IMG/VR virus record: IMGVR_UViG_3300027759_000050
Coordinates: 1 to 64,000 of that record
Strand: one strand, 5' to 3'
Length of the DNA stretch: 64,000 nt
Source: a virus
Positions 9,081 to 45,577 of the stretch are shown here, piece by piece. The position numbers and the translations under genes are program-made. Every line of letters starts with the position of its first letter. The first letter of the stretch is position 1. Under the pieces are notes generated by a model that did not search any database, was not told where the DNA came from, and saw only the letters and a list, made by a program, of their open reading frames with translations.

Positions 9081-12000
9081 TTAAAAGAAAGCAAAGAAGT
9101 TGCCACTATAAGTGACACCTGAAGGAGCACCGGAAAAAACCCATCCTGAATTGTTTGAGACATTAACGGAGTATGCACCAGCATACCATGAAGCACCTCC
9201 GGTTGCAATAGAATCTTGAATGTACAAATCATCGACATTAACTATACCACTGGATTTGGATAATGTTGCAGCAATTCCTGGTATTGTTGAATTGATGTAA
9301 ACCTTGAAAGGTTGGAAAGATGAAGTAACAACAACACCAACATTGGTTACAGTCAAAGCACCGGAACTAGTGTCTGTAAGGAAAGATGCACTATTTGGTG
9401 TATTCAATAACAATGAAGTTTGTGTACCAGTTACTGCAACTATATTTGTTCCAGATGATTGTGTGGTGTCCAATGGATTCATCGGAACAGTGAAATTACC
9501 TGTATATACACCAACTCCTTTAGTTATGCGAATATTGGAAAAAGTCGCACTAAGAAAACCTGTACCGCCTGCACCAGATGAGTTGTGTGCTATAGCTGGA
9601 GTACCACAAAGATAAGTGTTTGTATCTGTATATGTTGTTCCAACTTGAACACCATCCACAAACATTCTTGTGGATGATCCACTTTTTGAAATTGCTAAAT
9701 GATACCAAGTGTCAGTTGTCAATGTTCTTGTTGGATTTGCACCTCCGCCACCTAAAACTGCAACATTATTAACCATAAAAGATGGTTGTCCACTTGACAT
9801 ATAAAAATATGGTGCTACAGAAGTAGCAGCAGTTCTTGCATCATATATTGTTCCATCAGTTAATGAATTTAATCTACACCAACATTCAAATGTAAATTCG
9901 CCTGTACCAAATGTGAGCGTTGCCGGAGCCGCAGGCAATGTCAAATACTGTGATGTACCATTAAAAGTTACGGAGCCTAATGGATATGCACCTGCTGGCC
10001 CACCATTGTTGAGACCTACACCTGATATATTAAAATTACTAACTGTTTGAGTTGTACCCGATTGAAATGTTACATTCATTCCTTTATTTGCAGATGTGGT
10101 AATATCATAAAAAGTATTATTACCTCTTATGGTTAGTGTTCCACCACCACCTTGATTTAATGTTCCGTAAGATCCTCCACCTCCTGAAAATATTTTTGAA
10201 TTATTGCTCGTCAAGCTTATTGTAGAAGAAACGGTAAGATTAGGATTTATCTGTATTAATGGAGGCGCGAATGGCACAAAAGTTACGCCGCCAACATTTT
10301 CTGTACGCTTAGGCAATGCACTACTATCCGCTAAGTAAGTCAACGGAGAACTCATTGTCATTAATACAACTGTTTGTGCTCCATAAATTCCTCTTATATT
10401 TGTACTAGGGCTTTGTGTTACAGTTAATACTGTATTTGGTGGCGTAAAATTTCCATAATATACAGCATTATTTGAAGTATATCTAAAATTAGTCAAATAA
10501 CCAACCCAACAACTTGGTGAACTTCTATCAGAACCCAACATTAACATATTGCTTGCATTATTAAATGTATCTGAACCAGCTAAGTAAGAACCAACATTTT
10601 TTCCATTAAACCAAAGTGTTACTCTATTTGTTGGTGTTGAAGTTCTTGTAACTGCGTAATGGTTCCATCTATTAATTAATGGAACATAAGGAGTTTCAAC
10701 AGAACCGGTTTCTAATCTAATACTAGAACCATACCAAAGTTGCCAATGGCCGTTTTGCATATTAATAACACTTCTGAGAGAACCTGACGAAGAAGTACCC
10801 GTATCTCCCCAAGAAAAATGATGTTGCGCGGTTGTGTTACTTGTACCATAAGCCCACACCTCAAGTGTAAAATCATTAAGGTCTGCGAATGGAGCACTAG
10901 GAATACTAACAAGATTTGCTGTTGTTGGATTGGAATTAAATATACTACCTCCAACTCCATTAGCTTCCCAAGATGCAGCAAGTGAATTAATAGTATTTCC
11001 ATTAACAACTATATCTGAACCTGTAATTGTTCTTGTAATTGTACCTGTAGTATATACATTCTTGCTTGTTAAAGGTCCGGAAAGAGTTAATGAACCACTT
11101 GAAAATGTTATTGTATTTGCTGTTGTAGCATCCAATGAAGCGGTTGAGGTGGTATTAATATATAATGTGGATAGTGGTTTATTATTTGTTTCGATAACTT
11201 TGTCGGTACCAAAAACATTTGCAGAAAAATCTGTATAAGTTCCTGTAGCTGATAAAGTTAAATTGCCTTGCACAGATACAGTATTAGCTGGTATCAATGA
11301 ACTACTTCCTGTAAAATCTAAATTATTAAAATAACTATTAAGACCAAACGTAGGTGAACTCGAACCGCCGTTAATAGACAAATCTACTAATTTTCCACCA
11401 ATTGGTAATGAAGCTTCAAACGGTGATGAAGTTGATGATGATGTTCCGACATTTGTTATTGTAAAATTATTTAAACTATTATCTACTAAATAAGTGCTAG
11501 CGCCTGGAACTGTATTTAATAACAAGGTTGTCTGTGATGCAAGTATAGAATTAACATTGGTACTTGCACTTTGAGAAGTTGTTAGTGGGCTGGTGGGAAC
11601 TGTGAAATTTCCAACATATGCACCAACGCCTTTAACTATACGCACATTAGAAAAATATGCAAATAGGGTTCCATCACCTGCACCACCCGATGAATTGTGT
11701 CCTATTGCTGGTATAGCACCTGATACATTATAATTAGTTGTATCCGTAAATTCAAGGTCTTTTATACCATTCAGAAATATTCTTGTTGTAGTTCCAGTTC
11801 TACAAAGCGCCACATGATACCAATTAGTTCTAAATAACTTTGTTGAAGCTGTAGTAAATGTACCATTAATTAAAATATTAAGTCTATTTCCGCCAACACC
11901 AAAATAAGGTCCAGGTGAAGTGGAGCCAGTTCTTAAATCAACAACGGCACCATCACCAGGCGCCACAAGACGAATATAAGCTTCAATTGTAAAATCACCT

Positions 12001-15000
12001 GTGCCAAATACAAATCCAGCATTAGCTGGAGCTGTTACATATTGACCTGCAGAAATAGCTGAAATACTACCGGTAGTAGTGGTGCTTATGGTATTTGCAC
12101 CATTATATGAACGAGCAACAGACATATTGCTAGTGAATCCACCTAGGCCAGTCCAAGTGAAATTATTGGAATTACTTATATCTAATGCAGTTGTTCCAGC
12201 GGTTGAATGTATAAGATTGATGTTACCTGCACTTGTACTACCAAATGCAATTGAACGGACATTACTATTACTTGAACTGAATGCACCTACACTTAATGTT
12301 ACTCCGTCCGCTAATGTTATTGTACCTGTGGTGAAAGTATATGTACTGGTTGCTCCTAAAGATCCTGTGTTGTTGAATGTTACCGAACCTGAGGTGTGTG
12401 TAAATATTGGTATTGAACCAAGAGTTACTGAACTACCAAAATTAATTGAACCTGAATTCAATATAAGACTAGTGCTAGCACTAAATGTACCAGGACCAAT
12501 AACACTAATTGTAGATCCATTAACTGTAAATGTTGTACAATTACAGTCTATAATTGTAATTGCAAATGCACCTGCTGTAATTGTTGATGTTGTTTTTCCG
12601 TTATATGTTAATGTTCCTGAAGCAAATAAGATTAAAATTAATGCAGTATATGTACCACCGGATGATAATGTTAAACCTTTTATATTTAATGTTGTTGCAG
12701 GTAATGTAAATGATGTGGTGCCAAAATCAATTGTACCAAACCAACTACCGGATGTTATTGTTGCAACACCGGCCCCTGTAGTAAATGTAAGATTTCGCGC
12801 ACTGGCTGCAAACCCTGCGGCCGATCCAAAAGTAAATGTCCTAGCAACTGACATGTCATTTACAGTGAATCCACCTGGACCTGTAGTCGTAAGTGAATTC
12901 GTATCAGCCATACTCAATACTGTTGTGGCCGCGGTGGTATGTGTGAGATTGATGTTACCTGCACTTGCACTACCAAATGCAATTGTTCTGGTAGAACTAT
13001 TAGATGAACTGAATATGCCTGTAGTTAATGTTACCCCATTGGCTAGTGTCAGTGTACCCGCCGATAGTGTGTAAGTACCTGTGGTTGTTAGTGCGTATGA
13101 TTGATTCAATGTAACAGTACCAGCACTATGAGTAAATAACGGTGTTGCACCTAATGTGGCGGTTCCTCCATATGTAAATGATCCTGATGTTAGAACAAAA
13201 CTAACTGATGCATTAATCGTACCACTTGTAAAGTTAAATGTTGGACCATTGATGGTAAAAGTTGTACATGATATAGTTCCAATATTACTTAAAGTGCCGG
13301 CGGTATATGTTGCTGTACTTGAACAAGTTAAGTTAAATGTGGCAAAATCAATAGTACCTAATGTTTGTGTCCAAGTTGTCACACCTAATGCAGCAGCTAA
13401 AGTAACAGTACCTGCGGTATTAACTGTAAGTGCTGCAATAGTTTTACCGTTAGGTGTAATAGTTCCGGTTCCAATTGCATTGATACTTAATCCAGTATAA
13501 GTTCCAGTAGCTGACAATGTAAAACCTTTTACATTTAATGTTGTTGCAGGTACTGCAAATGATGTGGTGCCAAAATCAATTGTACCAAACCAACCTCCTG
13601 AAGTTATTGTTGCAATACTAGCCCCTGTAGTAAATGTAAGATTGGGTGCTTGGAATACGGCGCCAGCTGCGCTACCGCAAGTCAATGTTTTTGTAGCTGA
13701 CATTGCGGCCACAGTAAAACCACCCGGACCTGTAGGCGTAAAAGAATTCAAATCAGCCATACTCAATACTGTTGTGGCCGCGGTGGTATGTGTGAGATTA
13801 ATATTGCCTGCACTTGCACTACCAAATGCAATTGTTCGGACATTACTATTAGATGAACTGAATATACCTGTTGATAGTGTAACACCACTACTTATATTCA
13901 ATGTGCCTATTGTAAAAGTATAAGTGGAAGTTACCGGCAATGTACATGTTGCTGTTATTGTTACCGAACCTGCGGTATGTACAAATGACGGTGTTGTAAT
14001 TGTACCACCACTGTATGTAAATGAACCAGAGGTTACTGTAAAACTGGTGGAAGCTGATATTGTACCAGATGATAATGTAAATGTAGAACCCGCAGAATGT
14101 GTCCAAGTAGTACATGATATAGTTCCAATATTACTTAAAGTGCCAGCTGTATATGTTGCTGCACCTGAACTAGTTAAGTTAAATGTGGCAAAATTGATAG
14201 TACCGGCTGTCTGTACATACGATGTACATCCAAACGCCGCAGCCAATGTAACTGTACCTGCGGTATTAACTGTGAGTGCTGCAATAGTTTTACCGTTAGG
14301 TGTGATGGTTCCAGTACCAACAGCATTGACACCTAAAGCAGTAAAAGTTCCACCAGATGATAGTGTTAAAGCATTTAAGTTTACTGTTGTAGATGCTATG
14401 GTGCTTGTAGTGGTACCAAAACTTAATGTATCGAACCAGCTACCTGAACCAAATGTGAGCACGGCAGAACCGGTTCCTGTAAATGATAAATTCGGTGAGT
14501 TTGTTGTTGTGCCACCCGTGGTGCCCCATACAAATGTGCGGGTAACAGATGCATCAGAAATAAATGTTTGAGTACCAGTAAAGGTATAATTGGTAAGATC
14601 GGGTACATTTAATATAAATTGTGCAGCTGTACTATGATTCAATGTCATCGAGTATATGTTCCATGCAATACTTCGGACATTAGTATTATTTGAAATAAAT
14701 GAAGCAGTTGTTAAATTCGCACCTAATGTTATTGTGCCTGCTGTGAATGTATAAACACAAGTTGCAGGTAATGTCCATGATACCGTTGTTGTTACCGAAC
14801 CTGCGGTATGTACAAATGACGGTGTTGTAATTGTACCACCACTGTATGTAAATGAACCAGAGGTTACTGTAAAACTGGTGGAAGCTGATATTGTACCAGA
14901 TGATAGTGTAAATGTAGCTGAAGCTGCATGAGTCCAAGTAGTACAACTTATAGTTCCAATATTACTTAAAGTGCCAGCTGTATATGTTGCTGCACCTGAA

Positions 15001-17396
15001 CCTGTTAAGTTAAATGTGGCAAAATTAATAGTACCAGCTGTTTGAGTATATGTTGTACAACCTAAAGCCGCAGCCAATGTAACTGTACCTGCGGTATTAA
15101 CTGTGAGTGCTGCAATAGTTTTACCGTTAGGTGTGATGGTTCCAGTACCAACAGCATTCATACCTAAAGAAGTGTAGGTTCCAGTAGCTGATAATGTCAA
15201 ACTATTCAAGTTTAACACCGTTGCTGGCACAGCAAATGCAGTAGTACCAAAACTTAATGTATTGAACCAACTTGCAGTTGTGAAAGTTGCTATTGCTGTG
15301 CCGCTACCAGTTAATGATAAATTCGGTGAGTTTGTTGTTGTACCACCCGTTGTACCAAATACATATGTTCTAGTGACCGCCGCATCACTAATGAATGATT
15401 GTGTTCCAGTAAAAGTGTAACTAGTAACAATAGCCATGTTCAATACAGTTGTTGCAGCTGTACTATGATTCAATGTAATGGTATAAGTGCTCCATGCAAT
15501 AGAACGAATATTGGCATTTGTAGAACTAAAAGCACCAGTTGATAAATTACCACCTAATGTTATTGTACCTGCTGTAAATGTATAGGTGCAAGTTGCTGCT
15601 AATGTCCATGTTGCTGTTGTTGTTACTGTACCGGCAGTATGTACAAAAGATGGTGTTGTAATTGTTCCACCACTATATGTAAATGAACCAGAGGTTACTG
15701 TAAAACTGGTAGAAGCAGATATTGTACCAGATGATAAAACAAATGTAGCTAAAGCTGCATGGGTCCATGTTGTACAAGATATAGTTCCAATATTACTTAA
15801 TGTTCCAGCTGTATATGTTGCTGCACCTGAACTAGTTAAGTTAAATGTGGCAAAATTGATAGTACCAGCTGTTTGAGTATATGTTGTGCATCCAAAGGCG
15901 GCCGCCAATGTAACTGTACCAGCACCATTATTTACAGTAAATGCTGCTATAGTTTTACCGTTAGGTGTAATGGTTCCAGTACCAACAGCATTCATACCTA
16001 AAGAAGTAAAAGTTCCACCACTCGATAATGTTAAACCATTCAAGTTTAATGTGGTCGCAGCCATAGCAAAAACTGTTGTACCAAAACTCAATGTATTGAA
16101 CCAACTAGCGGTTGTTATGGTAGCGATTGCAGTACCCGTACCTGTTAAAGAAAGGTTTGGTGCATTGGTTGTTGTACCGCCGGTTGTACCAAAAGTAAAT
16201 GTTCTGGTAATTGAAGCATCAGCTGAAAATCCACCCGCACCTGTAAAAGTAAATCCAGTTGCATTAGCAAAATTCAATACAGTTGTTAAAGCTGTTGTAT
16301 GTGTTAGTAATATATTACCTACACCAAACAAAATAGAACGTGTAGCTGTACCTGTGGAAGTAAATATACCAGTATTTAAATTGAAATCATTGAGTGCTAA
16401 TGTACCACTTGTTATTGTTGTGGTTGCATTAGTAACTAAAGTTAATGCATCACCAAGTGTAGTTGTACCTGATGTACTATTAATGTTTAAAGCTGCTATA
16501 GTCTTAGCAACGGAAACTATAGTACCTGTACCAACCATGTTAATAGTTAATCCAGTATATGTTCCACCAGTCGCAAGTGTTAAATTTCCAGCTATATTTA
16601 ATGTCGCTGCTGGTGGTGTGGTACTACTGCCTGTAAAAACTAAACTCTTAAACCAACTGGCTGTGGTGAGTGTTGATACCGCAGCACCACTTGGAATAAA
16701 TAAATTGGCTGTAGTTGTTGCTGAACCTCCAGTTGTGCCAATAGTATATGTTCTAGTAATTGAAGCATCAGCTTTAAAACCACCCGTACCTGAAGAAGAA
16801 AACAAGGTACTATTCGCCATACTCACGACAACGGATCCCACAGTTGTGGTAATCAAATTAATAAAATTTGCGCCAAATGCAACAGACCTTGCGCTGGCCA
16901 CATTTGAACTGAATATACCAGTGGACCAATCAAATCCATTAAGTGTCAATGCACCGTTGGTCAATGTAGTGGTGAGTGTTGCACCAGTTACTAATGCGCT
17001 ACCTAAACTCCAACCACCACCTACACCGTTGAATGTGATTGCACCATTTATCGTTGTACCATTGGTCGTAATTGTTTTGCCGGTGGTTGTGGCGTTGAAT
17101 GTTATTGCACCGGTACTTGTCCAAACAGTTCCTGCAACCAATGACATAGAACCGGTAACGGCCAAGGTGGGTGTTGTGCCTGTTGCGAAAGTTACGACAC
17201 CTGCACTAACTGTAATATCTAAACACAGTAAAGCACCTGTCATTGTGACGGTGTATGTACCTGCTTGATTAAAGAAAACGGAATCTGCGGCTGTAGGTAC
17301 AGATGCACCACCACCTCCACCCGAAGTCGCAGACCAGTTGGTGGTTAATGTGGTATTCCAAGTACCTGCGCCGCCTACCCAATATCTATCTGCCAT
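9081..17396 (-). CDS. Giant (2771 aa) Thr/Gly/Ala-rich repetitive beta-solenoid adhesin-like protein with three LamG/ConA-like domains
   Basis: N-terminal DRYWVGG.GTW; ~280-aa tandem repeats; three copies of (G)DFT.E.W/Y...W.H.A..R/K......F.NG...SN.R..KG...Y.GNFT.P (LamG-like); ends GNFFAFF. Confidence 0.75.
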   Translation of the reverse strand: MADRYWVGGAGTWNTTLTTNWSATSGGGGGASVPTAADSVFFNQAGTYTVTMTGALLCLDITVSAGVVTFATGTTPTLAVTGSMSLVAGTVWTSTGAITFNATTTGKTITTNGTTINGAITFNGVGGGWSLGSALVTGATLTTTLTNGALTLNGFDWSTGIFSSNVASARSVAFGANFINLITTTVGSVVVSMANSTLFSSSGTGGFKADASITRTYTIGTTGGSATTTANLFIPSGAAVSTLTTASWFKSLVFTGSSTTPPAATLNIAGNLTLATGGTYTGLTINMVGTGTIVSVAKTIAALNINSTSGTTTLGDALTLVTNATTTITSGTLALNDFNLNTGIFTSTGTATRSILFGVGNILLTHTTALTTVLNFANATGFTFTGAGGFSADASITRTFTFGTTGGTTTNAPNLSLTGTGTAIATITTASWFNTLSFGTTVFAMAATTLNLNGLTLSSGGTFTSLGMNAVGTGTITPNGKTIAAFTVNNGAGTVTLAAAFGCTTYTQTAGTINFATFNLTSSGAATYTAGTLSNIGTISCTTWTHAALATFVLSSGTISASTSFTVTSGSFTYSGGTITTPSFVHTAGTVTTTATWTLAATCTYTFTAGTITLGGNLSTGAFSSTNANIRSIAWSTYTITLNHSTAATTVLNMAIVTSYTFTGTQSFISDAAVTRTYVFGTTGGTTTNSPNLSLTGSGTAIATFTTASWFNTLSFGTTAFAVPATVLNLNSLTLSATGTYTSLGMNAVGTGTITPNGKTIAALTVNTAGTVTLAAALGCTTYTQTAGTINFATFNLTGSGAATYTAGTLSNIGTISCTTWTHAASATFTLSSGTISASTSFTVTSGSFTYSGGTITTPSFVHTAGSVTTTVSWTLPATCVYTFTAGTITLGANLTTASFISNNTNVRSIAWNIYSMTLNHSTAAQFILNVPDLTNYTFTGTQTFISDASVTRTFVWGTTGGTTTNSPNLSFTGTGSAVLTFGSGSWFDTLSFGTTTSTIASTTVNLNALTLSSGGTFTALGVNAVGTGTITPNGKTIAALTVNTAGTVTLAAAFGCTSYVQTAGTINFATFNLTSSGAATYTAGTLSNIGTISCTTWTHSAGSTFTLSSGTISASTSFTVTSGSFTYSGGTITTPSFVHTAGSVTITATCTLPVTSTYTFTIGTLNISSGVTLSTGIFSSSNSNVRTIAFGSASAGNINLTHTTAATTVLSMADLNSFTPTGPGGFTVAAMSATKTLTCGSAAGAVFQAPNLTFTTGASIATITSGGWFGTIDFGTTSFAVPATTLNVKGFTLSATGTYTGLSINAIGTGTITPNGKTIAALTVNTAGTVTLAAALGVTTWTQTLGTIDFATFNLTCSSTATYTAGTLSNIGTISCTTFTINGPTFNFTSGTINASVSFVLTSGSFTYGGTATLGATPLFTHSAGTVTLNQSYALTTTGTYTLSAGTLTLANGVTLTTGIFSSSNSSTRTIAFGSASAGNINLTHTTAATTVLSMADTNSLTTTGPGGFTVNDMSVARTFTFGSAAGFAASARNLTFTTGAGVATITSGSWFGTIDFGTTSFTLPATTLNIKGLTLSSGGTYTALILILFASGTLTYNGKTTSTITAGAFAITIIDCNCTTFTVNGSTISVIGPGTFSASTSLILNSGSINFGSSVTLGSIPIFTHTSGSVTFNNTGSLGATSTYTFTTGTITLADGVTLSVGAFSSSNSNVRSIAFGSTSAGNINLIHSTAGTTALDISNSNNFTWTGLGGFTSNMSVARSYNGANTISTTTTGSISAISAGQYVTAPANAGFVFGTGDFTIEAYIRLVAPGDGAVVDLRTGSTSPGPYFGVGGNRLNILINGTFTTASTKLFRTNWYHVALCRTGTTTRIFLNGIKDLEFTDTTNYNVSGAIPAIGHNSSGGAGDGTLFAYFSNVRIVKGVGAYVGNFTVPTSPLTTSQSASTNVNSILASQTTLLLNTVPGASTYLVDNSLNNFTITNVGTSSSTSSPFEASLPIGGKLVDLSINGGSSSPTFGLNSYFNNLDFTGSSSLIPANTVSVQGNLTLSATGTYTDFSANVFGTDKVIETNNKPLSTLYINTTSTASLDATTANTITFSSGSLTLSGPLTSKNVYTTGTITRTITGSDIVVNGNTINSLAASWEANGVGGSIFNSNPTTANLVSIPSAPFADLNDFTLEVWAYGTSNTTAQHHFSWGDTGTSSSGSLRSVINMQNGHWQLWYGSSIRLETGSVETPYVPLINRWNHYAVTRTSTPTNRVTLWFNGKNVGSYLAGSDTFNNASNMLMLGSDRSSPSCWVGYLTNFRYTSNNAVYYGNFTPPNTVLTVTQSPSTNIRGIYGAQTVVLMTMSSPLTYLADSSALPKRTENVGGVTFVPFAPPLIQINPNLTVSSTISLTSNNSKIFSGGGGSYGTLNQGGGGTLTIRGNNTFYDITTSANKGMNVTFQSGTTQTVSNFNISGVGLNNGGPAGAYPLGSVTFNGTSQYLTLPAAPATLTFGTGEFTFECWCRLNSLTDGTIYDARTAATSVAPYFYMSSGQPSFMVNNVAVLGGGGANPTRTLTTDTWYHLAISKSGSSTRMFVDGVQVGTTYTDTNTYLCGTPAIAHNSSGAGGTGFLSATFSNIRITKGVGVYTGNFTVPMNPLDTTQSSGTNIVAVTGTQTSLLLNTPNSASFLTDTSSGALTVTNVGVVVTSSFQPFKVYINSTIPGIAATLSKSSGIVNVDDLYIQDSIATGGASWYAGAYSVNVSNNSGWVFSGAPSGVTYSGNFFAFF
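12590..16400 (-). repeat. Tandem ~830-850-bp coding repeats in the giant adhesin
   Basis: Anchor TTACCGTTAGGTGT (PNGK) at 13444, 14290, 15121 and 15955 (spacings 846/831/834); degenerate copy near 12595; long identical stretches between copies. Confidence 0.9.
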
Positions 17397-17402: not shown

Positions 17403-17630
17403 TTACTCAGTTGGTGTTGTTTCTGAAATAATTTCTTCTGTTGGCAATGAATTAACAATAACCAACCAATTATCAAATCTTTCTTGTTGCATTGTTGAAA
17501 TTTGTTCAGGTGTTAATGCATCATATTCTTCTTGTTTAAACCACAGAGCATCTCTATATGTTTTATCTCCGTCTGTCTTTTCAAAAATTATTTGGACTTG
17601 TCCGTCAATTTGATTTATAATATCTTCCAT
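17403..17630 (-). CDS. Small acidic hypothetical protein (possible chaperone/adaptor of the giant adhesin)
   Basis: 75 aa with AAGGA RBS, tightly packed between the stalk gene and the adhesin; motif YRDAL....EEY...MQQERFDNW. Confidence 0.7.
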   Translation of the reverse strand: MEDIINQIDGQVQIIFEKTDGDKTYRDALWFKQEEYDALTPEQISTMQQERFDNWLVIVNSLPTEEIISETTPTE

Positions 17631-35300: not shown

Positions 35301-38300
35301 TTGGTACACCAACCATGTCAGCAACATATAAACGAATTTTTGTTGTGTTTGGATAATAATATACGTTAATTACACGAGCAACTGGATAGAAAACATTTGC
35401 TATATAGAAACCAACAATATCATTTTTATTAAATGTTCCAGATACGCCAGTTAATTCGATGGTATTTGGATTAGACAAATACTGAGATACATCTACACCA
35501 TCAAAATATGTTGATACATTTGAATTGACTAACAGATTGGTAGCACTAATAATAATTGATTGGTTTTTAATATATGGTAATATTGCAATGTTTGTCAAAT
35601 AACCATTATTTATCCCAAAAGTTGATGATGTTGGATTATAAGTTCCTGAAACAGTATTTTTTATTTGACTAGCATAAGTTTCGGTTACAGTTGTTGTTGT
35701 TGATGATCCTTGTTCTCCATTGCCGGTTGTCGAGGTGGATGAACTGGTTTTAAAAGTTGTTGTTCCTGGTATTGTTTGATAATCACCTGAACTCAATAAA
35801 TTAACACCATCACTGGATTGATACACTTGAAAATTAGGATCAGTTACTAGAACCGCAGGAGCTTGAGTGACATCCACCCAATTATCCATTGGAGGATTTA
35901 AATTTAGAATTCCTTCTTTTACAGAAACATTAAAAGGATTAACTGAAACTGTACTACTTGCAAGTGGTTGAAACGCAACATTTTCTGTTGTAAATGGTAA
36001 AGTAAATAGATTTGTTTGAGCATTATTAATACTATTAATTCTATAACTACCTGTATTTGCCACTGTACCTAAACCAGCAAGAACAACAGGATTTTGCAAT
36101 TGGAAATTTTGAACAGATTGTAATGCCGTCATTTGATTTTTGCGTACATTGATATTTGCGGCGTAATCTGGATTATAAGTATCTGCTGTTCCAAACGATG
36201 AAAAATCATCTACTAAAATACCATTTTTAAATCTATTCAAACCATTAGCATCAGCAATTTGTTGAGAACTGGCTTTCTGTTCCAAAATACTTAAAGAAGT
36301 ATAGTATTCTAAATTATTAACACGAGTTTCTAAATCTGTAATATCTTCTTTTGCCCAACGCTTGTGGAGAACTTTATTAATCGACAGATTAGAAGTTACA
36401 CCCGGAGTACCTTCACCTGGAACAAAAGCTGTGTAAGGATCATGTGATAGATTTGCTATTACTAAAGAACCAGAAGGTTCATTTGGTAAAGAAGGATTGA
36501 CAGAAGATGTTCCTTGAATGATATTAAAACTTTTGTCTGTTGTTAAGACCAATTTATCTTTTCTACCCAAATAATATTGATAGAAACCTGTGAAGTTTGA
36601 TAGATTATTAGGTATCAACATACCAAGGTCATTGCTACTAGATTGTGCGCCTGAATATTCCCAAATGTAGGAAGTTTGGCCATTAACACGACAAGGCCTA
36701 AAGTCAATACAATCTCTTAATGCATAGTTAACACCATCTTTAGCTGTGTATGTTCCAATTTGTGCATATGCTTCCGGAGAACTTGATACGCCACCATATG
36801 TTGAACCTGAGGAATTGTATGATTGAATACTGAAATAACCATCACCAGATGATGCTTGACTGTGTGAATAGTAATCTACAACAACTAAGATGTTGCCGGC
36901 CGGTCTAGGTGCACCAGGAATCAATGATACAGATGCATGGTCGTAATAATTATCCCTTTGACCATTATCTAATGTATAGTAAGAAGTGACATCTGTGTAA
37001 CCAGATAATGATCCCGTTGGATTTGTACCTGCTACACCTGAATCAATAACTTTTGTAATTTTCTTAACATCATTCACATATAAAGACATTTTTCCGGTGG
37101 TGGCAATGTCTGAATTTTTAATTGTAATTTGGCCTGTTGTTAGGTCTTGATAGGAATTTGTACCAGAAATTAATGAAAGTGAACCAACAGTTGTAGTATT
37201 TCCTGTAACTAAACTCTTAGATTTTAGAACATAACTTGCAGAATCACCACTACTTACTTGAACTTGTGCAATAATTGTAACATTTTTACCTGTACCTACA
37301 CCTGAACCAACCGTAAATGTTGCTGTAGTTTTATCACCCGAAATGGAAATTGTATTACCTGATGTGGTAAAATCCATAACACTACCTGTTGAATTATCAA
37401 TAACCATGAACAGTTGTTGAGCTGTTGAACTATCTAAAGTTCCGGTACCTTGAAATTTTAATGGATTACTTGCATTTCCTGAAGTTGATTGTAAAGTTAA
37501 TGTTGTTCCTGTGAATGTTTTTGAACGATATACTCTTTGTGTGTAATATGAAGTTGTAATTAATTGAGCAACATAAGGATATCCAATTTGGAATATCATT
37601 TCAGGTGATACTTGTGAGTATAATATGGTATCAGAATTTGCTAGACCATTAACCTTACCACTGGATGCATTGATATTAACATTTGCGGTCATTGCATATG
37701 AACCTGAACCCGCTGTTTTAATAATGGACTCAATATCAGCATTTTTGAATATTAGGGAGAATTTTGAACTAGCTGTTGGAGTAACAGTAAAAGGTGAATC
37801 GACTGTGGCAATTTTGGTGGAACCACTATAACTTACAATTCTTCTAGAATCAATTAAACCACCTGTATTCATACTAACAGTTATTCCATAATATGCATTT
37901 GCAACCGGTGAGAAGGAACCAGTTGTATCTGTGATAGTGAATGTATTTGCAGTACCTGAAGTAACATTTCCAGTTAATGTATTTGCAGAAAAATCTGAAA
38001 TGTATGCGTTGTAAATATAATTTTTTGTAGTTGAACCTGTGCCTGAAACATATTTCATATTGCGGATAAATGCACTGCCAGCCAATGTTGCTGAATATGT
38101 TTTAGTGTTGGTTGAAACAACATTAGATGCGGGAACACAATGAAAATCAACTTGTGGCATTGTCGAAATGTCAAAAACACCATTTGAAGTATCAACAACA
38201 AAGTAATTTCCATAATCAATAAAGACTGGATTGTTACTAATATTTGCAACAGATTGTGCTCTATCGTTTGTTAATTTAATATCTGATTGACTTTCCACTC

Positions 38301-39333
38301 TATAACCATGAACATATGCAACACCTTTACCTATGTTTAAATCATATTTTGTCGATGAGATTGAGTTTGCAGAAGGTGTCAGTTTAAATTCATTTACAAT
38401 GTAATCACCGTTAGTTTCATAATCACGCTTTGCAAAGTAATCATCGATGGTTGAATAAACTGTACCGTCAACTTGTTTAAGAATACTTCCGTTTTCGATG
38501 CGAACTAATTCAATAAAATTATCATCGTTACCTAGTGTTAGTGGTAATGTTACCAGTGTTAGTGTAATAACATAACGGTCTGCACCTGGTGCTTGGTAAT
38601 TTGAAGCACCAACAGCCGGATCCAATAAAGAAGAATCATTTATATAATCATAAATCGTTTCTGTTATTTGGAGACCGACACGATAAGATGGTACATTATC
38701 ATACTTGTCTAAGATGATTGTTTGTGGGTCGACCTGTACGAAGTTACCAATTGAATATTTGATACCGGTTATGTCTGAAACGGAATAACCATTAACAATA
38801 TAGAAGACACCACTGGAAATTGAGGCAACCGAAGATAGTCCTGTAGATACACTTGATGCTGTAGTAGTTGCAACAGAAGCATAATATGTTGATCCTGATG
38901 TTGTTACAATAACAGTACCGTCTGTAAATTGAGCTCCGGATAAGTATGTTACAATCAATGTAGGTGGATCACCAGTCGTGGAACCACTGGATGTAGTTTC
39001 GGCTGTGGCTAGAACTCTAGCTAGAATTGTTCCACTTGCATCTTGAATTATTTGACCTGCAAAATTTTCAGCAGTAACAGTTAATCCATTATATGTGTTG
39101 TTTAACTTGATAAAATAACAATTTTGATTAACTGTTACTTGGCCACCAGAAACTGGAGTATTTTGGGAGAAAATTGCAGAAGCAAAATTTGAAATTTGAT
39201 TTTGCAGAATAGTCTGCGATTGGGTTAATTCACGAGCTTGAACCGCGGATCCGGGTTTAAAAAGTATGCGGTGAAAGTTTTTTGATGGATCAAAATCGTC
39301 AAAATAGGGGCCAACATTGAAATTTAAAGACAT
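32398..39333 (-). CDS. VrlC-like large baseplate structural protein (DUF4815 type)
   Basis: NV.PYFDDFD..KNFHRILFKPG.AVQARELTQ.QTILQNQ, APGADR, KGVAYV.GY, LE.RV.NLEYYTSLS.LE, RFKNGILVDDF, DPLAQTF, W.ADQ.KDL.F, FAIKVVL. Confidence 0.88.
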   Translation of the reverse strand: MSLNFNVGPYFDDFDPSKNFHRILFKPGSAVQARELTQSQTILQNQISNFASAIFSQNTPVSGGQVTVNQNCYFIKLNNTYNGLTVTAENFAGQIIQDASGTILARVLATAETTSSGSTTGDPPTLIVTYLSGAQFTDGTVIVTTSGSTYYASVATTTASSVSTGLSSVASISSGVFYIVNGYSVSDITGIKYSIGNFVQVDPQTIILDKYDNVPSYRVGLQITETIYDYINDSSLLDPAVGASNYQAPGADRYVITLTLVTLPLTLGNDDNFIELVRIENGSILKQVDGTVYSTIDDYFAKRDYETNGDYIVNEFKLTPSANSISSTKYDLNIGKGVAYVHGYRVESQSDIKLTNDRAQSVANISNNPVFIDYGNYFVVDTSNGVFDISTMPQVDFHCVPASNVVSTNTKTYSATLAGSAFIRNMKYVSGTGSTTKNYIYNAYISDFSANTLTGNVTSGTANTFTITDTTGSFSPVANAYYGITVSMNTGGLIDSRRIVSYSGSTKIATVDSPFTVTPTASSKFSLIFKNADIESIIKTAGSGSYAMTANVNINASSGKVNGLANSDTILYSQVSPEMIFQIGYPYVAQLITTSYYTQRVYRSKTFTGTTLTLQSTSGNASNPLKFQGTGTLDSSTAQQLFMVIDNSTGSVMDFTTSGNTISISGDKTTATFTVGSGVGTGKNVTIIAQVQVSSGDSASYVLKSKSLVTGNTTTVGSLSLISGTNSYQDLTTGQITIKNSDIATTGKMSLYVNDVKKITKVIDSGVAGTNPTGSLSGYTDVTSYYTLDNGQRDNYYDHASVSLIPGAPRPAGNILVVVDYYSHSQASSGDGYFSIQSYNSSGSTYGGVSSSPEAYAQIGTYTAKDGVNYALRDCIDFRPCRVNGQTSYIWEYSGAQSSSNDLGMLIPNNLSNFTGFYQYYLGRKDKLVLTTDKSFNIIQGTSSVNPSLPNEPSGSLVIANLSHDPYTAFVPGEGTPGVTSNLSINKVLHKRWAKEDITDLETRVNNLEYYTSLSILEQKASSQQIADANGLNRFKNGILVDDFSSFGTADTYNPDYAANINVRKNQMTALQSVQNFQLQNPVVLAGLGTVANTGSYRINSINNAQTNLFTLPFTTENVAFQPLASSTVSVNPFNVSVKEGILNLNPPMDNWVDVTQAPAVLVTDPNFQVYQSSDGVNLLSSGDYQTIPGTTTFKTSSSTSTTGNGEQGSSTTTTVTETYASQIKNTVSGTYNPTSSTFGINNGYLTNIAILPYIKNQSIIISATNLLVNSNVSTYFDGVDVSQYLSNPNTIELTGVSGTFNKNDIVGFYIANVFYPVARVINVYYYPNTTKIRLYVADMVGVPNSLGSTTLRNATFDVNGNYVSSSASGTVPAGAIVNISPSGKISGVGGGWSNTLNGSTTTQLYATPVVQNYSTLLNNYGIWGDATNGTSFNFTSPVTFTSAGTYTIEVGASGSAFVYANGTSIGASLSSTPASTTTFTYTVATAPVVVKIGFAATSSGTTTSSFGMTIKDSGSNIVYSTINPPISYVNAGTKVAMPGGGEWFIDATQLRLDPSKASNTSNYYVGSNISVTSKYVYIYNNKYYDKIQTFKSVITAYDVSTKLVTLSTPVNLSLGTNSQVGGDLTSVYSISGSLTKINAAVQAGTALAKPSTDEAGNFVAIFNIPSGIFKTGSRVFRIDNRTVATDFTTATTFAEATFTASGLSTTVQKLNFAPSIDSSTSVFTQVSQISNQFISSSTTSRTTSWDNRPNNSDPLAQTFIVSKDNYPNGIFLYSIKIFFYSKATDNSPVTISVVPTLNGYPTGDTLDYSTVTLEPSKVNVSTSPHYLDPSSYTEFVFAAPVYIQSGVLYAFIVKSTSKDYVVYYGQQNQTAIPSTAKAKVTDPNPTNPTKIGAAPYVGALFESQNSITWTADQTKDLMFIIEKCLFSTTTASIPFLIPKNLPYRKMGSQDILNKLDANSASNLFGNYSPNRRYGALNITTTDLAPTGTGVNYTYATTLSSGNVPTGYNSVNPGRLGSPTSEDIYLADGNGERVLLKHTNTSFSLSATLSTSDPDVSPIISDDGLTLYTVSYNINNMGIGNNIISIADPGYGYNVLATTISISSPDIGSNVATLGLTANANGAITSVYTITSGAGYINTPTITISNPTTRGGNANVVITVAGETSPSGGNAIAKYFTKKVVLAPGNDSGDLRVFYTAYKPLGTAVYVYYKILNSADTSPFESGNWQLMTTLQNPNTYSKSRTDLYEYECAPGIFASNQANNSISYTNSTTGQTYDSFIQFAIKVVLATSDNTLVPFLTDIRALALPAGTGL

Positions 39334-39342: not shown

Positions 39343-40767
39343 TTAGTATCCTAGTACAAATTTAAATTGTTCGATGCCATCATTACTTCTTTGAACACCA
39401 ACTCTATTCTCAACATAGGTTATATATCCTGAGAATGGAACGAGAGATGGTTCAGTTACAGATAAAACAACCCTAGACGCACCTGAGGTTGCACCAATAA
39501 TTGTTTGGCCAACAGTATAAGTTCCACTTGTATTTATCAACTGTAAAATATTACTTGATGTATTAAAATTTAAAACGGTTGCGTAGTAAGTTATATTACC
39601 ATTTGCATCTTTTTGTTGCACAATCTCATCGGCCGTGTATACATTTCCTTGGCCAGAAGAAAGAAGGAATTGTGTTGTTGTATTATAAATTGCACCGTTT
39701 GCTAAAACAGGACCTGATGTTCCATAAGTCTGTGGATTAACAAGTATGCCAACCTGATGATAGTTTACACCAGTTGTTGGTAAAACTCCACTCTCAGTTC
39801 CATTAAATTCAACCGAGTACATAACATGATTACAACCCAATTCAGAAATTGGATCATATGCGTGGCCACCAACTGGAGAAATTGGTGAAATTGCTGTTGC
39901 TCCAGTGCCTAAAGGTGAAATAAAAGATAAATTTGATGAGGTGTATGCAGTTATTGTGACATTTGCGCTAGTGTAATTTTTACCTGCAAAACCAGGTTTC
40001 ACTACAACATCCTTAATTACACCTGCGGTTATTTCAGAACTAGATATATTTGCAACACATCCTGTACCGTCTCCTGTAACAGAAACAACAATAAACGTAT
40101 TAACTGCATCATAACCTGTGCCACCGTTTGTTATATTGATTACCTCAACGTCTCCATAACCTGCATTGGTCAAGTAAGGTTGTGGTGTATTTGCACCTAT
40201 TGGGATAGGCATCCAATCAGTGTCTAAGAAATTTTTCTTGAGGTTGGCATCAACGGTATACATGTACTTCCACTTATACAGGTCATTACCTTGATAGATG
40301 TTGTTTGTTCCATATGAACCTGGTTGAAAATATGGTTCAGAGGTGGATAATCCGCCGTTATTATTCGCTAGACACTTGAAGACTTGGTCGTATCTATTCT
40401 TTACATAAAAATTATACATTGGAAACCCATTGGCATCCTTTGCATTCATGTTCACGGTGCCTGAATAGGCAAAAAAGTTGGTGTTATTTGCCCAATTGAT
40501 TCTTTGGATTACCGGTGAAATATTACTGGCATTTAACAATTTAACCGCAAACATATTCTTAAAGATTTTCTTTAATGAATACTGGTCTTCTTGTGGTTGT
40601 ATTGGAGTTTCTACAGAACCAACTAATGGCCATGGATCTTCTTGGCCAAGAAATATATAAGTTGAATTAATCGAAGCACCATTGAGTTTCACTGACGGAT
40701 TGTAATAATCCGTCTCAACCCTGATTACTTTTGCTTGATTTGTGAGGATGTTTTTATTTGTAGCCAT
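39343..40767 (-). CDS. gp8: Baseplate wedge subunit
   Basis: YIFLG...PW, VIQRINW, FYV.N...VFKCL.NN, D.YKWKYMY, W.PIP, P.GGH..DP..ELG, YVENR..V.R..D..E..K.VL. Confidence 0.88.
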   Translation of the reverse strand: MATNKNILTNQAKVIRVETDYYNPSVKLNGASINSTYIFLGQEDPWPLVGSVETPIQPQEDQYSLKKIFKNMFAVKLLNASNISPVIQRINWANNTNFFAYSGTVNMNAKDANGFPMYNFYVKNRYDQVFKCLANNNGGLSTSEPYFQPGSYGTNNIYQGNDLYKWKYMYTVDANLKKNFLDTDWMPIPIGANTPQPYLTNAGYGDVEVINITNGGTGYDAVNTFIVVSVTGDGTGCVANISSSEITAGVIKDVVVKPGFAGKNYTSANVTITAYTSSNLSFISPLGTGATAISPISPVGGHAYDPISELGCNHVMYSVEFNGTESGVLPTTGVNYHQVGILVNPQTYGTSGPVLANGAIYNTTTQFLLSSGQGNVYTADEIVQQKDANGNITYYATVLNFNTSSNILQLINTSGTYTVGQTIIGATSGASRVVLSVTEPSLVPFSGYITYVENRVGVQRSNDGIEQFKFVLGY

Positions 40768-40771
40768 GATT

Positions 40772-40779
40772 TATTTATT
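40772..40779 (-). promoter_or_regulatory. Late promoter box (AATAAATA) 4 nt before the gp8 ATG
   Basis: TAATAAATA-AATC-ATG; no SD sequence. Confidence 0.55.
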
Positions 40780-42418
40780 AAGCGTGTACAACAGAAACAA
40801 GAGTATTTGCAAGGTCACCATCTATAGAAAAGTATCTCATGTATGCAGCACTAGTCGCAGGAATAGTGAATGTTGTGGAGTTTGTTGTGGAATTAAGTGC
40901 AGAAATACCGTGTGTTACCGTTCTATTGGTACCGCTTGTATTGATTAACCACAATTCCACCACTTTACCTGCGGTAAAGTTACTATGTGAAACCGTTAAA
41001 TCTGCAACCAAATTGGCTTTAATCAAAGCGTCTGTAGCATAATCAATGGTAATTGTTGTTTGATTTCCAACAGGAAGTCTAGGTGTGTAGATGAAACCTT
41101 TTTGTGGATTAACAACACCTGTAAATTCAGCAGAATTTCCGTTTAAGGTTAGAATGTTTGTCAGTGTATTTGAACCTGTTGTGCAATTCCAAAATTTAAT
41201 CTGTGAACCTGTATTTGCATCTGTATAGTTTTCGGCCGCCATAAAATCTATGCGACCTGTTCCAAAAGCTTGATATTTTGTTGTTCCGTAACCATTGCCG
41301 GAGAATCTACATAATATATCACCAGTTTGAACAGCTGTTGGATTAGATACATTACCTCTTGCTGCACGACCTGCATATACAGCATATGCGCCGGTGCCAT
41401 AAGAATCTGAAACAATCCTTGATGGAATGCCATTTTTACCTGAAATATGAAGCATATAACCATCGTTTGATGGTGTTGCAACTGTTGGTGATGCTGTAAT
41501 TGTCACGGCAGCTTCTGTCGCAGTGAAATTTGAATTTGCAAGTATCATAGTACCATTAACAGTCAAATTGTTCAAGATGTTTAACGAACCATTAAAATTC
41601 CCTGTAGTATTTGCAAGTGCGTTATTTGCTTTAACAAACGCTGAGTTAGCAAATAAAGCTCCCGAATTTGCTGTAACAAAAGAACCATTGGCAAATAATG
41701 CTCCAGAATTTGCTGTATCGAAAGCTGAAGTAATACTTGTGTTCTGTGTGGTATTGATTGCTGATTGTGTTGTAACAGTTGTATTAGCTAACGCAAATGC
41801 AGCCTGAGAGTATGCATTAGAAGCGGCCGCAGTTGTCTGTGTTGTACCATCCGAAAAAGTAATGTAAGACTGTGTATTTAATTTCAATCCAGTGTTTGTC
41901 ATCCATGCAACAATATTTTGACTCATTGTTCCACCTGCAATGAATTGAATTCTTGCGTTTGCAGATGCTGTACCTAAGATTAGATTACCCTGAGCGCTGG
42001 CATCTGTAACTCCATGAACATACAGATACCCGTCATAAGGTTTGAATGCAGAATAATAAACTGGATCATTATATTGTGGATTACCAATACCCATGTCGAT
42101 GTATTTGGTAATATTATCAGAATCTATAGTAGATGCCACAAAATCAGACGATGAATAAATTCCGTTTGCAAAATTTTGTAGGTTTAACTGCACATAACTA
42201 TTAGCCAAACTGGAAAACTGTGCTATTGTATTTGAATAACTAATCCTGTTATTACCCACAATCAATGCAGTATTTGCAAACAGGCCTGCCGCCAATGTTT
42301 CGGCCGAAAACTGGAATGTTTGTGCGGAAGGTATATCAACACCAACAAACAGAGTATTTGCTGTGTTTGCATTGATTGTTGTAAATTGAGGTAATTCTGA
42401 GATTTTAATTGTTGACAT
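40778..42418 (-). CDS. Baseplate-associated fibre-like protein
   Basis: N-terminal IKISELP; modules shared with other fibres (Q.N.QN....SSDFV...YIDMGI...DGYLYV.G; ITFSDGTTQTTA; short A-N heptads; RG....PTAVQ.GD.L..F.G.GY). Confidence 0.7.
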   Translation of the reverse strand: MSTIKISELPQFTTINANTANTLFVGVDIPSAQTFQFSAETLAAGLFANTALIVGNNRISYSNTIAQFSSLANSYVQLNLQNFANGIYSSSDFVASTIDSDNITKYIDMGIGNPQYNDPVYYSAFKPYDGYLYVHGVTDASAQGNLILGTASANARIQFIAGGTMSQNIVAWMTNTGLKLNTQSYITFSDGTTQTTAAASNAYSQAAFALANTTVTTQSAINTTQNTSITSAFDTANSGALFANGSFVTANSGALFANSAFVKANNALANTTGNFNGSLNILNNLTVNGTMILANSNFTATEAAVTITASPTVATPSNDGYMLHISGKNGIPSRIVSDSYGTGAYAVYAGRAARGNVSNPTAVQTGDILCRFSGNGYGTTKYQAFGTGRIDFMAAENYTDANTGSQIKFWNCTTGSNTLTNILTLNGNSAEFTGVVNPQKGFIYTPRLPVGNQTTITIDYATDALIKANLVADLTVSHSNFTAGKVVELWLINTSGTNRTVTHGISALNSTTNSTTFTIPATSAAYMRYFSIDGDLANTLVSVVHA

Positions 42419-42421
42419 TTT

Positions 42422-45400
42422 TTATCCTATTAGAAGCCATTCGTTTGTTTCTGATGTTAATATATCGCCGTTCTCTGTTCCCAATTGTGCAAAATATTGT
42501 GTTCCCACTGGTCCAATGATTTGTACATTATCATATAGAGAAGTGAAACTTCTTCCTACGGAGACATATCCGTTTGCGCCACTTGTCAAAGGACCACTCA
42601 AAACAACTGAAGTAAATGGTGTATTGAATGCTGTTACTGTCTGAGCTACTCCATTAACTGTAATCTTATCTCCAACACGAATAATATCCAATATAGGGTA
42701 TGCGGTGTTACTGTAAGTACCATTATTGACAATATTATAACTCCATGTCAATGACTGTATATTTATTATCTGATTATTACCATTGGCCAAAGAAGATGAT
42801 ACAGCCACATTAGCAAAATACGTCCAAACATTATCTTCCAATGTTACTGTATTCGCGGCATTGTTTACCTTAACAACCATACTATGAACAACATCATTTA
42901 TACCTGTTCCATATGTAAAGACCAATTCTGTGGAGTTTGCAGTAATGAAATCGGAAACATTGGCACCATACATATTATTAAATTTAACAATGTTGTTACT
43001 TGGATTTGCTGCATTTCCTGCTGGAATTGTTACCGTTGCTGCAAGACCGGCATAATAACTTAATCTGTAACCAGTGTCTAAAGCATCAGATACTTCAAAA
43101 TCCATATTACTATTTGAGGCCATTGCAATACGGCCAAGAACTTTTGTTCCAGATGGATGCAATAGATTTAATAATACTTCACGATATTTTTCTATCTCTT
43201 TAGAGAGTGTAATTTGATATGTGTAGTTATTATAGTCAGTGCTTTGTAGTACATCGAACGCACTTGGTTGGCCTGTGGTATCTAAATATTGACCATCTCC
43301 TATAACTAGACCTGACAGGAAAGTTGCATTTGCTTTTGCGAATCCATCACCATATGAAATAATACCGTTAGCTGAATCAAATCTTGTATTTTCTACAGAA
43401 TTGTCAAAAGTTGTATTATGGATGTTTGTATAACCTCCGACCAATGTAACTGCGGCACCCTTTGAATCAATTTTTAATGGTAGATTTTTGTTTGGTATAG
43501 AATTGTAATTGTAAACTCTCAGTTGGTAAATACTGTTATTTGCAGGAACAAAATTCTCTAAGACATTAATCGAATCTACAAAAGCTGTATATGTTGCAGT
43601 ATTTGTATTTGCACCCTGATATATAACATCACCAGCTGAAGGAATCATTGATGAAAAAACATTAGATACAATTAAATCTTGTACTTTAAGTGATACTTTA
43701 GGTGCACCAACATAATCTTCACCGTTATCTATGATATTAAATGATGTGATTGAGCCGACACGATTCAATGCTTGTGAAAATGTTGCACCTGATCCTAAAA
43801 TACCAGGAATTAATAATGATGCTGTTCCTAGATAATACAAATTTGCATTTAGAGTATATGAAGAATTAGAAGTCAAAATCATTGAATTGGAATTTACAAC
43901 AGTCTTAACTGTTCCAATAATGATATTAGTATTAGAAACCAATAAAGCACCGTTGCTGAATTGTGATGTAAAGTTTGTTCCGTTTCCTGTAACCACATTG
44001 CTCGTGGTTGAAACTGTTACATTACCACTACCGGTGCGACCAACTACAATTGTGGGTAAATTAAAGTAACCCATTCCACCCAGTGTCATTCTGTTTGTTG
44101 AATTACTTACATAATCGACAGAAACAATTGAACCGGTACCGTTTACGGTCACATTTGCAAATGCACCATAACCTGAACCACCAATGAAAACAATTTTGTC
44201 GTTGTTAGAATAACCAGAACCTGGATTAATAATTTGGATTGGTGCAAGAATACCTAAATTTTGAAGCTTGGTCTGTGAATAAACATCAGTGGTATATTCT
44301 GAGATTGCTTGAATATCTGGCGGAGCAGAAAAACCACCACCTTGATTTTCAACAATAATAGAGGATAAAGGAAACGTAGAAAAACTAGCAAAACTGAGTG
44401 CATTTGCTAAAGTTGTATTTGCATTTGCACTGGATAGGTTTGCAAACTGATATACCTGTTGTGTCCATAGGCCAGTAGATGAGTTATATGTGTTTGCACC
44501 AGAACTGCCTGCAATATTGCCCAAATAGTGATACTGTTTTAACTGAATACTATCTGTGGGTATAAATGTTACATTTGCAATACCTACAGGATTTAAAGAA
44601 CCAACAACAGCAATAGGTGCTTGTGGATTTGTACCGACTAAATTTGAAAATTTAATAAATGTATTGGCGCCGCCTATTTGTGTATTAGCTATAGAAGTTG
44701 TATAACCATAACCTTCTGAAACAACACTAATACGTTGAATGGAACCTGAAGTAACTGAACCAACCTCAACTGTAGCTCCAGTAGGATTAGATACATTTGA
44801 ATTTAAACCACCATAAACAACAACTGGATCTTTTGCTTGATAAGCTAAACCTCTATTGTTTGGATCAATCTTAACTTGACTAATTTGACCAACAATTTGA
44901 GCTACTAATGTTTCTGATCCTGCTGTTCCAGCTGGTACAATTTCGCTGTTTAAAAAGTAAACAGGTTGATTTGCAGAATCTACAACTATTACATTTTCAC
45001 CAGATTGGAAAAGTCTTTCGATGTTTGAAATGAATACTTCGGTTTTAAGACCGTCATAAATTGCCGCTTCAACTGTTCCTATAGATTTTGAGGTTTGGCC
45101 AAACAATCTGAGATTTTGAATAGATAAGAAGTTTTTATTACTGGTCGCCAACTTCAAACTTCTAGGTACATACCATTTACCTGAAGAAGCTTTAAGAACT
45201 GCATCTTTTGTGTAGAAAAAATCTACATCAGAATTATAAAGTATTCTAAACAAAAATTTATAGGATGCAGGCGTACCTTTACTTTGATACAGTTGCTTTG
45301 CTATCTTGATTGCTTTTGTTTTGTCTGCCAATATTTCTTGTGGAAAATATGACATAAAATCATTCACATAATACTGTAAAAACTGTTCTGTGGTTGTATC

Positions 45401-45577
45401 CACATCCATGTAGTTAAGTAAATTCTTGGAAAAATCTAATGTGTTATTTTGTTGTTCCAACCACTCATAGTAAGCTTGTATGAATAGAACAAAATTGGCG
45501 TAATTTGGGTCCTCGCTAATGAATTTAGGAAGCTGAAAAGGGACCAGTAACGATGTTTTATTGGTACTTTGTAACAT
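42422..45577 (-). CDS. gp7: Baseplate wedge initiator (gp7-like)
   Basis: QLP.FI.ED...FV.FI.AYYEWLE, D.D.T...F, K....LY.SKGT..SY.FLFRILY, ASSGKW, LQ..DY..Y.Y.I......KY...L.NLLHPSGTK; lies between gp6 and gp8. Confidence 0.8.
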   Translation of the reverse strand: MLQSTNKTSLLVPFQLPKFISEDPNYANFVLFIQAYYEWLEQQNNTLDFSKNLLNYMDVDTTTEQFLQYYVNDFMSYFPQEILADKTKAIKIAKQLYQSKGTPASYKFLFRILYNSDVDFFYTKDAVLKASSGKWYVPRSLKLATSNKNFLSIQNLRLFGQTSKSIGTVEAAIYDGLKTEVFISNIERLFQSGENVIVVDSANQPVYFLNSEIVPAGTAGSETLVAQIVGQISQVKIDPNNRGLAYQAKDPVVVYGGLNSNVSNPTGATVEVGSVTSGSIQRISVVSEGYGYTTSIANTQIGGANTFIKFSNLVGTNPQAPIAVVGSLNPVGIANVTFIPTDSIQLKQYHYLGNIAGSSGANTYNSSTGLWTQQVYQFANLSSANANTTLANALSFASFSTFPLSSIIVENQGGGFSAPPDIQAISEYTTDVYSQTKLQNLGILAPIQIINPGSGYSNNDKIVFIGGSGYGAFANVTVNGTGSIVSVDYVSNSTNRMTLGGMGYFNLPTIVVGRTGSGNVTVSTTSNVVTGNGTNFTSQFSNGALLVSNTNIIIGTVKTVVNSNSMILTSNSSYTLNANLYYLGTASLLIPGILGSGATFSQALNRVGSITSFNIIDNGEDYVGAPKVSLKVQDLIVSNVFSSMIPSAGDVIYQGANTNTATYTAFVDSINVLENFVPANNSIYQLRVYNYNSIPNKNLPLKIDSKGAAVTLVGGYTNIHNTTFDNSVENTRFDSANGIISYGDGFAKANATFLSGLVIGDGQYLDTTGQPSAFDVLQSTDYNNYTYQITLSKEIEKYREVLLNLLHPSGTKVLGRIAMASNSNMDFEVSDALDTGYRLSYYAGLAATVTIPAGNAANPSNNIVKFNNMYGANVSDFITANSTELVFTYGTGINDVVHSMVVKVNNAANTVTLEDNVWTYFANVAVSSSLANGNNQIINIQSLTWSYNIVNNGTYSNTAYPILDIIRVGDKITVNGVAQTVTAFNTPFTSVVLSGPLTSGANGYVSVGRSFTSLYDNVQIIGPVGTQYFAQLGTENGDILTSETNEWLLIG

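Follow-up and report, generated by a model that had tools for sequence, protein, structure and literature searches.

A fibre island between VrlC and the neck genes

The window analysed here (64,000 nucleotides) covers the opening 64 kb of a complete virus record of 160,679 nt with direct terminal repeats, and carries on its minus strand a T4-like structural module of gp25, gp6, gp7, gp8, VrlC, a fibre island and gp13-15, with the following landmarks:

39343-40767, minus strand: gp8
32398-39333, minus strand: VrlC (DUF4815)
8262-9035, minus strand: gp13

The gene order runs from gp7 through a 546-aa gene, gp8, VrlC, a 73-aa gene, a 1323-aa stalk and 308-aa and 255-aa tip genes, each tip gene being followed by a 93-96-aa gene, and continues through genes of 122, 1520, 108, 964 and 75 aa and a 2771-aa adhesin to gp13. 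All genes lie on the minus strand, each junction motif named in the initial annotation is in place, and the distance from VrlC to gp13, occupied by fibre-like genes and put there at about 23 kb, measures 23.4 kb. The stalks consist of Ala/Asn-rich repeats with PHROG tail-fibre matches, and several junctions are spanned, with no differences, by contigs from the best-matching public run, a freshwater metagenome that may be the source sample. As a variable, fibre-rich stretch from VrlC to the neck genes, the island fits the host recognition cluster of T4-like aquatic myophages, already described between VrlC and neck genes in pelagi- and cyanomyophages (PMC7029224), although the accessible part of that account covers the island and not junction motifs or connectors.

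Searches of the whole genome with T4 gp9, gp10, gp11, gp12 and wac (tblastn, phmmer) gave no match, and neither did the corresponding Pfam models, run on the complete genome without a true positive control. T4 gp13, gp14 and gp15 match the same genome at E values of 1e-22 to 1e-28; T4 gp8 reached only E 0.013, indicating limited sensitivity, so that gp9-12 and wac are to be called not recognisable rather than absent. The earlier proposal that the island replaces these genes is not supported, since a gp9/gp10-like fold still appears to be used, according to the model of the DGQK domain described below. Outside the island, between gp15 and the small terminase gene, positions 5506-6375 encode a 289-aa glycine-rich protein (phrog_2295) that is possibly another appendage part; the gp5 region appears split into several genes (48069-48911, 48921-50950), and no PHROG matches a 280-aa and a 281-aa gene.

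The gp7 junction

42422-45577, minus strand: gp7-like baseplate wedge (PHROG baseplate wedge, E 3e-40)
40778-42418, minus strand: 546-aa fibre with conserved N-terminal KISELP head and variable C end

The acidic C-terminal tail of gp7 (42425-42487) comprises two LxTExG-like repeats, is conserved in 41 relatives and is paired with the KISELP head in all of them (41/41). As these are all syntenic gp7 genes of one group, the junction does not provide independent evidence, and the docking pair proposed for it has been seen only in syntenic relatives. Fibres with an ..I.QLP head like that of the 546-aa gene are found in non-T4 phages (L088, L124, L126, L136), and at L088 an acidic ITDE motif resembling the gp7 tail closes the gene upstream.

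The 1323-aa stalk and its tip genes

32175-32396, minus strand: 73-aa gene (phrog_473), after VrlC and before an anchor N-terminus of NTF..W type
28202-32173, minus strand: 1323-aa stalk, with N-terminal anchor (32078-32173) and C-terminal GP..W.IV domain (28205-28354)
27266-28192, minus strand: tip protein 1 (308 aa), with constant N-terminus and variable body
26975-27256, minus strand: 93-aa probable tip assembly chaperone (phrog_9114/2687)
26205-26972, minus strand: tip protein 2 (255 aa), sharing its C-domain with tip 1 (phrog_18834)
25902-26192, minus strand: 96-aa probable chaperone, paralogue of the 93-aa gene

The GP..W.IV domain is present in 252 phage records, including P-SSP7 gp17, and has no sequence relative in the PDB. 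Genes with tip-type N-termini follow it, immediately or one gene on, in six of the seven records examined, the exception being S-CAM7, where no tip genes stand behind the GP..W tail. Four tip genes follow the single tail of P-SSP7 gp17, with starts resembling those of the two tips described here, and the family of the 93-aa gene is represented among them. Variation within the tips is concentrated away from the N-terminus, with identities among close relatives of 72-88% (N40) versus 10-35% (C40) for tip 1 and 75-80% versus 35-45% for tip 2. The 93-aa and 96-aa genes match only unnamed PHROGs; their presumed function is probably that of chaperones.

A putative LtfC-like anchor and a proposed free-standing jelly-roll adaptor

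25467-25835, minus strand: 122-aa LtfC-like fibre anchor, with a late-promoter-like site upstream at 25874
20905-25467, minus strand: 1520-aa Ala/Asn repeat stalk, with head (25378-25467) and class-A tail (20908-20943)
20895-20902, minus strand: T4 late-promoter-like site between tail gene and adaptor
20548-20874, minus strand: 108-aa jelly-roll adaptor of class A, characterised by model, clusters, fold search, neighbours and complex

The 122-aa gene is assigned to the homologues of LtfC by its match to phrog_3304 (LtfC assembly, E 4e-17), with a score against PF23926 of 20.7 bits, below the cut-off of 27. In phage DT57C a ring of LtfC on the virion takes up strands from the fibre N-terminus (PMC10713586), and genes following those of the 122-aa type likewise start with strand-like segments. 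The likeness to the LtfC-LtfA pair of DT57C/T5 thus consists of membership in the LtfC-assembly PHROG and a short strand-like start of the next gene, here in a myophage context, where a dodecameric ring of that kind would sit on the neck or the tail. Judged by its sequence, the 122-aa gene is a putative anchor that starts a new branch. The strand-like head and class-A tail of the 1520-aa stalk recur on proteins of 125-1886 aa.

The adaptor is modelled as a single jelly roll (pLDDT 93.6), the fold of C1q/TNF-like or cement-type trimers. The fold search gave KHP40 cement at Z 9.6 (rmsd 2.9, 101 aligned) within a tie at Z 8.5-9.6 of phage cement, turret, Ena and nucleoplasmin chains, none of them outstanding, and pentameric folds score as high as trimeric ones; the predicted oligomer is probably a trimer. 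No sequence relative of the adaptor is found in the PDB, and a scan of bacterial genomes with one adaptor, an insensitive one, likewise returned none. Relatives number 859 at the 50% cluster level, this genome holding a single copy, and fall into three paralogous classes (A, B and C) that form separate tree clades and occur together at L082; two further adaptor classes appeared unselected within class-A loci. In natural fusion proteins the adaptor precedes a body that looks, on inspection, like propeller or lectin domains. The adaptor may be incorporated into the virion, as suggested by a GenBank label for S-TIM5. Two class-B paralogues lie in tandem at both L056:14060-14736 and L070:14049-14725, and a 240-aa protein (P0086) unites a tail-A gene and an adaptor in one frame, either as a natural fusion or through a missed stop.

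Tails, adaptors and heads are paired by class

At 80 viral loci the gene upstream of the adaptor, which varies in length from 71 to 1886 aa, has an AIALG-type helix at its end in nearly all cases, and a YIG-type head opens the gene downstream. Among 1,371 non-redundant junctions, tail A precedes a class-A adaptor in 50/52 cases, tail B a class-B adaptor in 18/18 and tail C a class-C adaptor in 15/15, with no cross-class pair; a YIG-type head follows the class-A adaptor in 48/50. As the tail and head patterns were written after inspection and most loci were chosen through one partner, these counts overstate sensitivity, and specificity is the meaningful part of the table. Cassettes inherited as a unit can also produce class-specific pairing with no specificity involved. 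One of the two tails A without an adaptor is separated by an inserted endonuclease-like gene; at L064:9408-10004 a 198-aa gene, GIY-YIG homing endonuclease-like by inspection, lies between a tail-A gene and its adaptor. No tail adjoins the adaptor in 6/24 cases of class B and 4/19 of class C, as at L015, where class B and C adaptors (12216-12554 and 15940-16335) have their usual downstream heads and no cognate tail within the 17.8-kb locus.

The class-A triad of tail, adaptor and YIG head was found in all 11 cultured podo- and myophages examined, among them T7-like HTVC019P (with the tail at the end of a gp17-like fibre), HTVC010P (two YIG genes per adaptor), HMO-2011, S-TIM5, Melnitz (two copies), PhiW-14 and YerA41, and hence on T7-like, HMO-2011, HTVC010P and myophage scaffolds. 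YIG heads that do not adjoin an adaptor are in excess in adaptor loci (50/1093 versus 3/974 elsewhere), implying that a single adaptor gene is often accompanied by several heads. Small connector genes and matched terminal motifs travel together; the neighbour recurrence stated in the initial annotation is real and, for four types of junction, far exceeds chance, and across unrelated phages the co-occurrence of motif pairs is class-specific and conserved at the protein level.

Such linkage would need no protein contact if the ends were self-trimerisation or capping motifs and gene-border DNA, acting as a recombination anchor, kept neighbours together. The promoter and spacing at the junction are indeed conserved (a late-promoter-like site is present in the tail-gene/adaptor gap in 36 of 39 distinct gaps of relatives and absent in the other three), repeat homology among the stalks is extensive, and synteny alone explains the gp7 junction. 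This account is nevertheless quite improbable: tail codons are synonymously diverse, so that selection acts on the peptide, the triad holds where the promoter is missing and where adaptors share only 30-40% identity, only 2/52 tails lack their partner, and the excess of non-adjacent YIG heads runs against it. Read-through from the tail gene into the adaptor was rejected, as the gap, in frame here, varies from 23 to 37 nt across relatives.

The DGQK domain and the giant adhesin

17652-20546, minus strand: 964-aa stalk, with YIGN head (20520-20546) and C-terminal DGQK domain (17655-17978)
17403-17630, minus strand: 75-aa accessory gene
9081-17396, minus strand: 2771-aa repeat adhesin, with three LamG-3 domains and Phe-rich C-terminal tail (9084-9104)

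No Pfam or PDB sequence match was found for the DGQK domain, the model of which (pLDDT 96.9) appears to resemble gp10-type branching domains, with 99-100 residues matched to CBA120 TSP4 76-181 (Z 7.3, rmsd 3.7, 100 aligned) and to residues 92-198 of the gp10-size baseplate chain of KP1 (Z 6.9), and a further match to T4 gp9 (Z 5.2). The predicted fold is the XD beta-sandwich; the Z values are middling and well above those of unrelated chains, only 7 of 48,161 chains reaching Z 5, and other matches include a depolymerase C-domain (Z 8.5), CpaA (8.0) and a capsid spike (7.8). Profile comparisons of the DGQK domain with the C-domain of the 546-aa protein (probability 0.6%) and the middle of the 255-aa protein (7%) are in register and weak. 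Domains of the gp10-like XD/branching type dock separately encoded binding proteins (PMC11414711, PMC13352976).

Of 27 complete cases, 16 have a Phe-rich tail on the next large gene after the DGQK domain, several others being near misses, against a background of 21/970 proteins. The common adhesin has a conserved N-terminus as well as this C-terminus, and at L082 the adhesin following the DGQK domain has no Phe tail; adhesins whose N-termini are unrelated also keep the tail, an observation in favour of the C-terminus as the probable plug. The 75-aa gene, which matched no known family and had been proposed as a socket, was discarded as such, being optional and absent at several loci: in cultured P19250A the DGQK domain and adhesin are directly adjacent, and in two runs another organism's contig joins the flanks without it (weakly, with 32-base sides). 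It may instead cap or chaperone the adhesin.

A predicted adaptor/tail complex and the chaperone alternative

In a model of three adaptors and three tails, a stoichiometry that was assumed, the complex scored 0.40 against 0.02 for the best control, with runs agreeing in at least 88% of contacts and partner pLDDT of at least 76. The score mark was reached in the benchmark by 58/80 solved and 2/110 mismatched pairs, and only seven solved pairs and both mismatches lie at or below 0.60; the model weakly supports tail/adaptor binding, the one pair modelled among the docking interfaces proposed in the initial annotation.

Small genes lying directly behind fibres often encode chaperones, and such a chaperone would be predicted to bind the same tail. 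An example is given in the accessible part of the work on Pam3 (PMC9608196). The small genes of the island could accordingly be Tfa-type assembly chaperones that bind the C-terminal tail of a fibre, aid its trimerisation and are then released, with neighbouring genes forming separate appendages, as would suit the optional 75-aa gene, the chaperone-like 93/96-aa genes and a late promoter before the adaptor permitting its excess expression. Left unexplained, however, are the N-terminal motif, specific to the class, with which the next gene starts (48/50), the fusions of adaptors to receptor-binding-type domains and the fibres that would otherwise have no tip (HTVC019P, and stalks of 66-132 aa), making this explanation unlikely.

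Probable branched appendages with exchangeable joints

The favoured reading, considered fairly probable, is of several separately anchored appendages in which interchangeable segments are joined end to end, each motif pair being a putative physical joint, to judge from gene ends and models; location of the joints on the virion and orthogonal specificity between them would be expected. As the 122-aa and 73-aa genes each precede a fresh N-terminal anchor, there are probably three or four branches. In the first, an LtfC-like ring would hold the 1520-aa stalk by its N-terminal strands, the hydrophobic C-terminal helix of this stalk would plug into an adaptor oligomer (probably a trimer), the adaptor would hold the YIGN head of the 964-aa stalk, and the gp10-like domain ending that stalk would hold the adhesin, most likely by its Phe-rich C-terminus. 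The second would comprise a baseplate anchor, the 1323-aa stalk, its GP..W.IV domain and two alternative or stacked tips, and the third, the least tested, the gp7 tail with the 546-aa fibre. In relatives, adaptor paralogues B and C would supply further class-specific joints. With only the ends required to match, recombination inside the repeats could change both length and receptor-binding parts.

The initial annotation envisaged a single chain in gene order with one-to-one interfaces. Gene order does match the proposed order of joints within the first branch, and to that extent the claim stands; as a single linear chain it is highly improbable, as the 122-aa and 73-aa genes precede fresh anchors, matching motifs are absent between the tips and the 122-aa gene and between the 546-aa fibre and the next stalk, and LtfC anchors fibres on the virion body (PMC10713586). 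Strict one-to-one pairing is contradicted by the several YIG-start or tip genes that can follow one socket, as in HTVC010P (two per adaptor) and P-SSP7 (four per tail).

The swapping of parts predicted earlier is evident among relatives, in which matched ends are lost, moved or recombined together. Among anchors that follow the 73-aa gene, 27 carry tail A at the other end, 7 a chaperone-type end and 2 GP..W; anchors of gp17 type terminate in tail A or GP..W, and YIG-head genes in tail B, C, GP..W or others. At L092 and L009/L093 another end has taken the place of the GP..W tail, and the tip genes no longer lie behind it; at L009 they are found after a GP..W tail carried by a different gene, and at L092 tail A and adaptor are both missing. 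Tails recombine independently of anchors and, when lost or moved, take their partners with them, as exchangeable joints predict and fixed synteny does not.

Relation to known docking systems

The long tail fibre of T4 (gp34-gp35-gp36-gp37(-gp38)) is likewise assembled in gene order, its segments and a connector being encoded by separate genes and joined end to end. Its interfaces are large, fixed and lineage-specific, with no sequence relation detected to this island, whereas a connector of 110 aa and ends of ten residues, in three paralogous classes, are met repeatedly here among podo- and myophages. By analogy, two of the sockets seem to resemble proven docking parts, namely LtfC and the gp10-like branching domain. 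In the KP32/K11/KP34 (PMC13352976) and Ackermannviridae XD (PMC11414711) systems a gp10-like domain on one fibre, similar to the predicted DGQK fold, docks a separately encoded binding protein, and parts are swappable; the KP32-type docking peptide is N-terminal on a trimeric tailspike, whereas the best-correlated motif here is the C-terminal Phe-rich tail, the DGQK domain lies at the far end of the stalk, unlike in both systems, and a free-standing adaptor is absent from them. The neck fibre of A-1(L) (gp82-gp81-gp80) also chains multi-gene trimers head-to-tail by short terminal elements, although there one bead protein polymerises about 14 times (PMC10966104). The principle of peptide-docked fibres already has precedents in T4 long fibres, KP32/CBA120 branching, LtfC-LtfA and A-1(L). 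A literature search, with subscription papers mostly outside it and absence thus not proven, yielded nothing relevant on the junction motifs or such a connector; a free-standing adaptor family in three classes, with C-terminal plugs and a distribution across podo- and myophages, is apparently undescribed in the literature searched.

A bolder proposal, given slightly less than even credence, is of a portable docking code common to aquatic tailed phages, in which adaptors A, B and C and the GP..W and DGQK sockets would bind only their own short terminal peptides, so that any anchor, stalk and adhesin could be combined in a branched appendage; small unannotated genes behind the 'tail fibre' would encode the true receptor-binding proteins of HTVC010P-, HMO-2011- and P-SSP7-type phages. 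The joints are present in cultured representatives of very abundant marine phages, the annotated fibres of which end in a tail motif and not in a known binding domain; the distal fibre of P-SSP7 is unresolved by cryo-EM, with only 117 aa fitted (doi 10.64898/2026.08.19.745834). Such a code would name candidate host-range genes, predict fibre architecture from gene ends and be open to test with small proteins and peptides, and orthogonal classes would constitute a natural set of trimer-to-trimer couplers. A further pairing, absent from the window, is seen after an LtfC-like gene at L005, L011, L092 and L100-L102, with a DGG.F-type motif closing one gene and an I.I.KRS-type motif opening the next at 20/34 junctions versus 7/1,388 otherwise.
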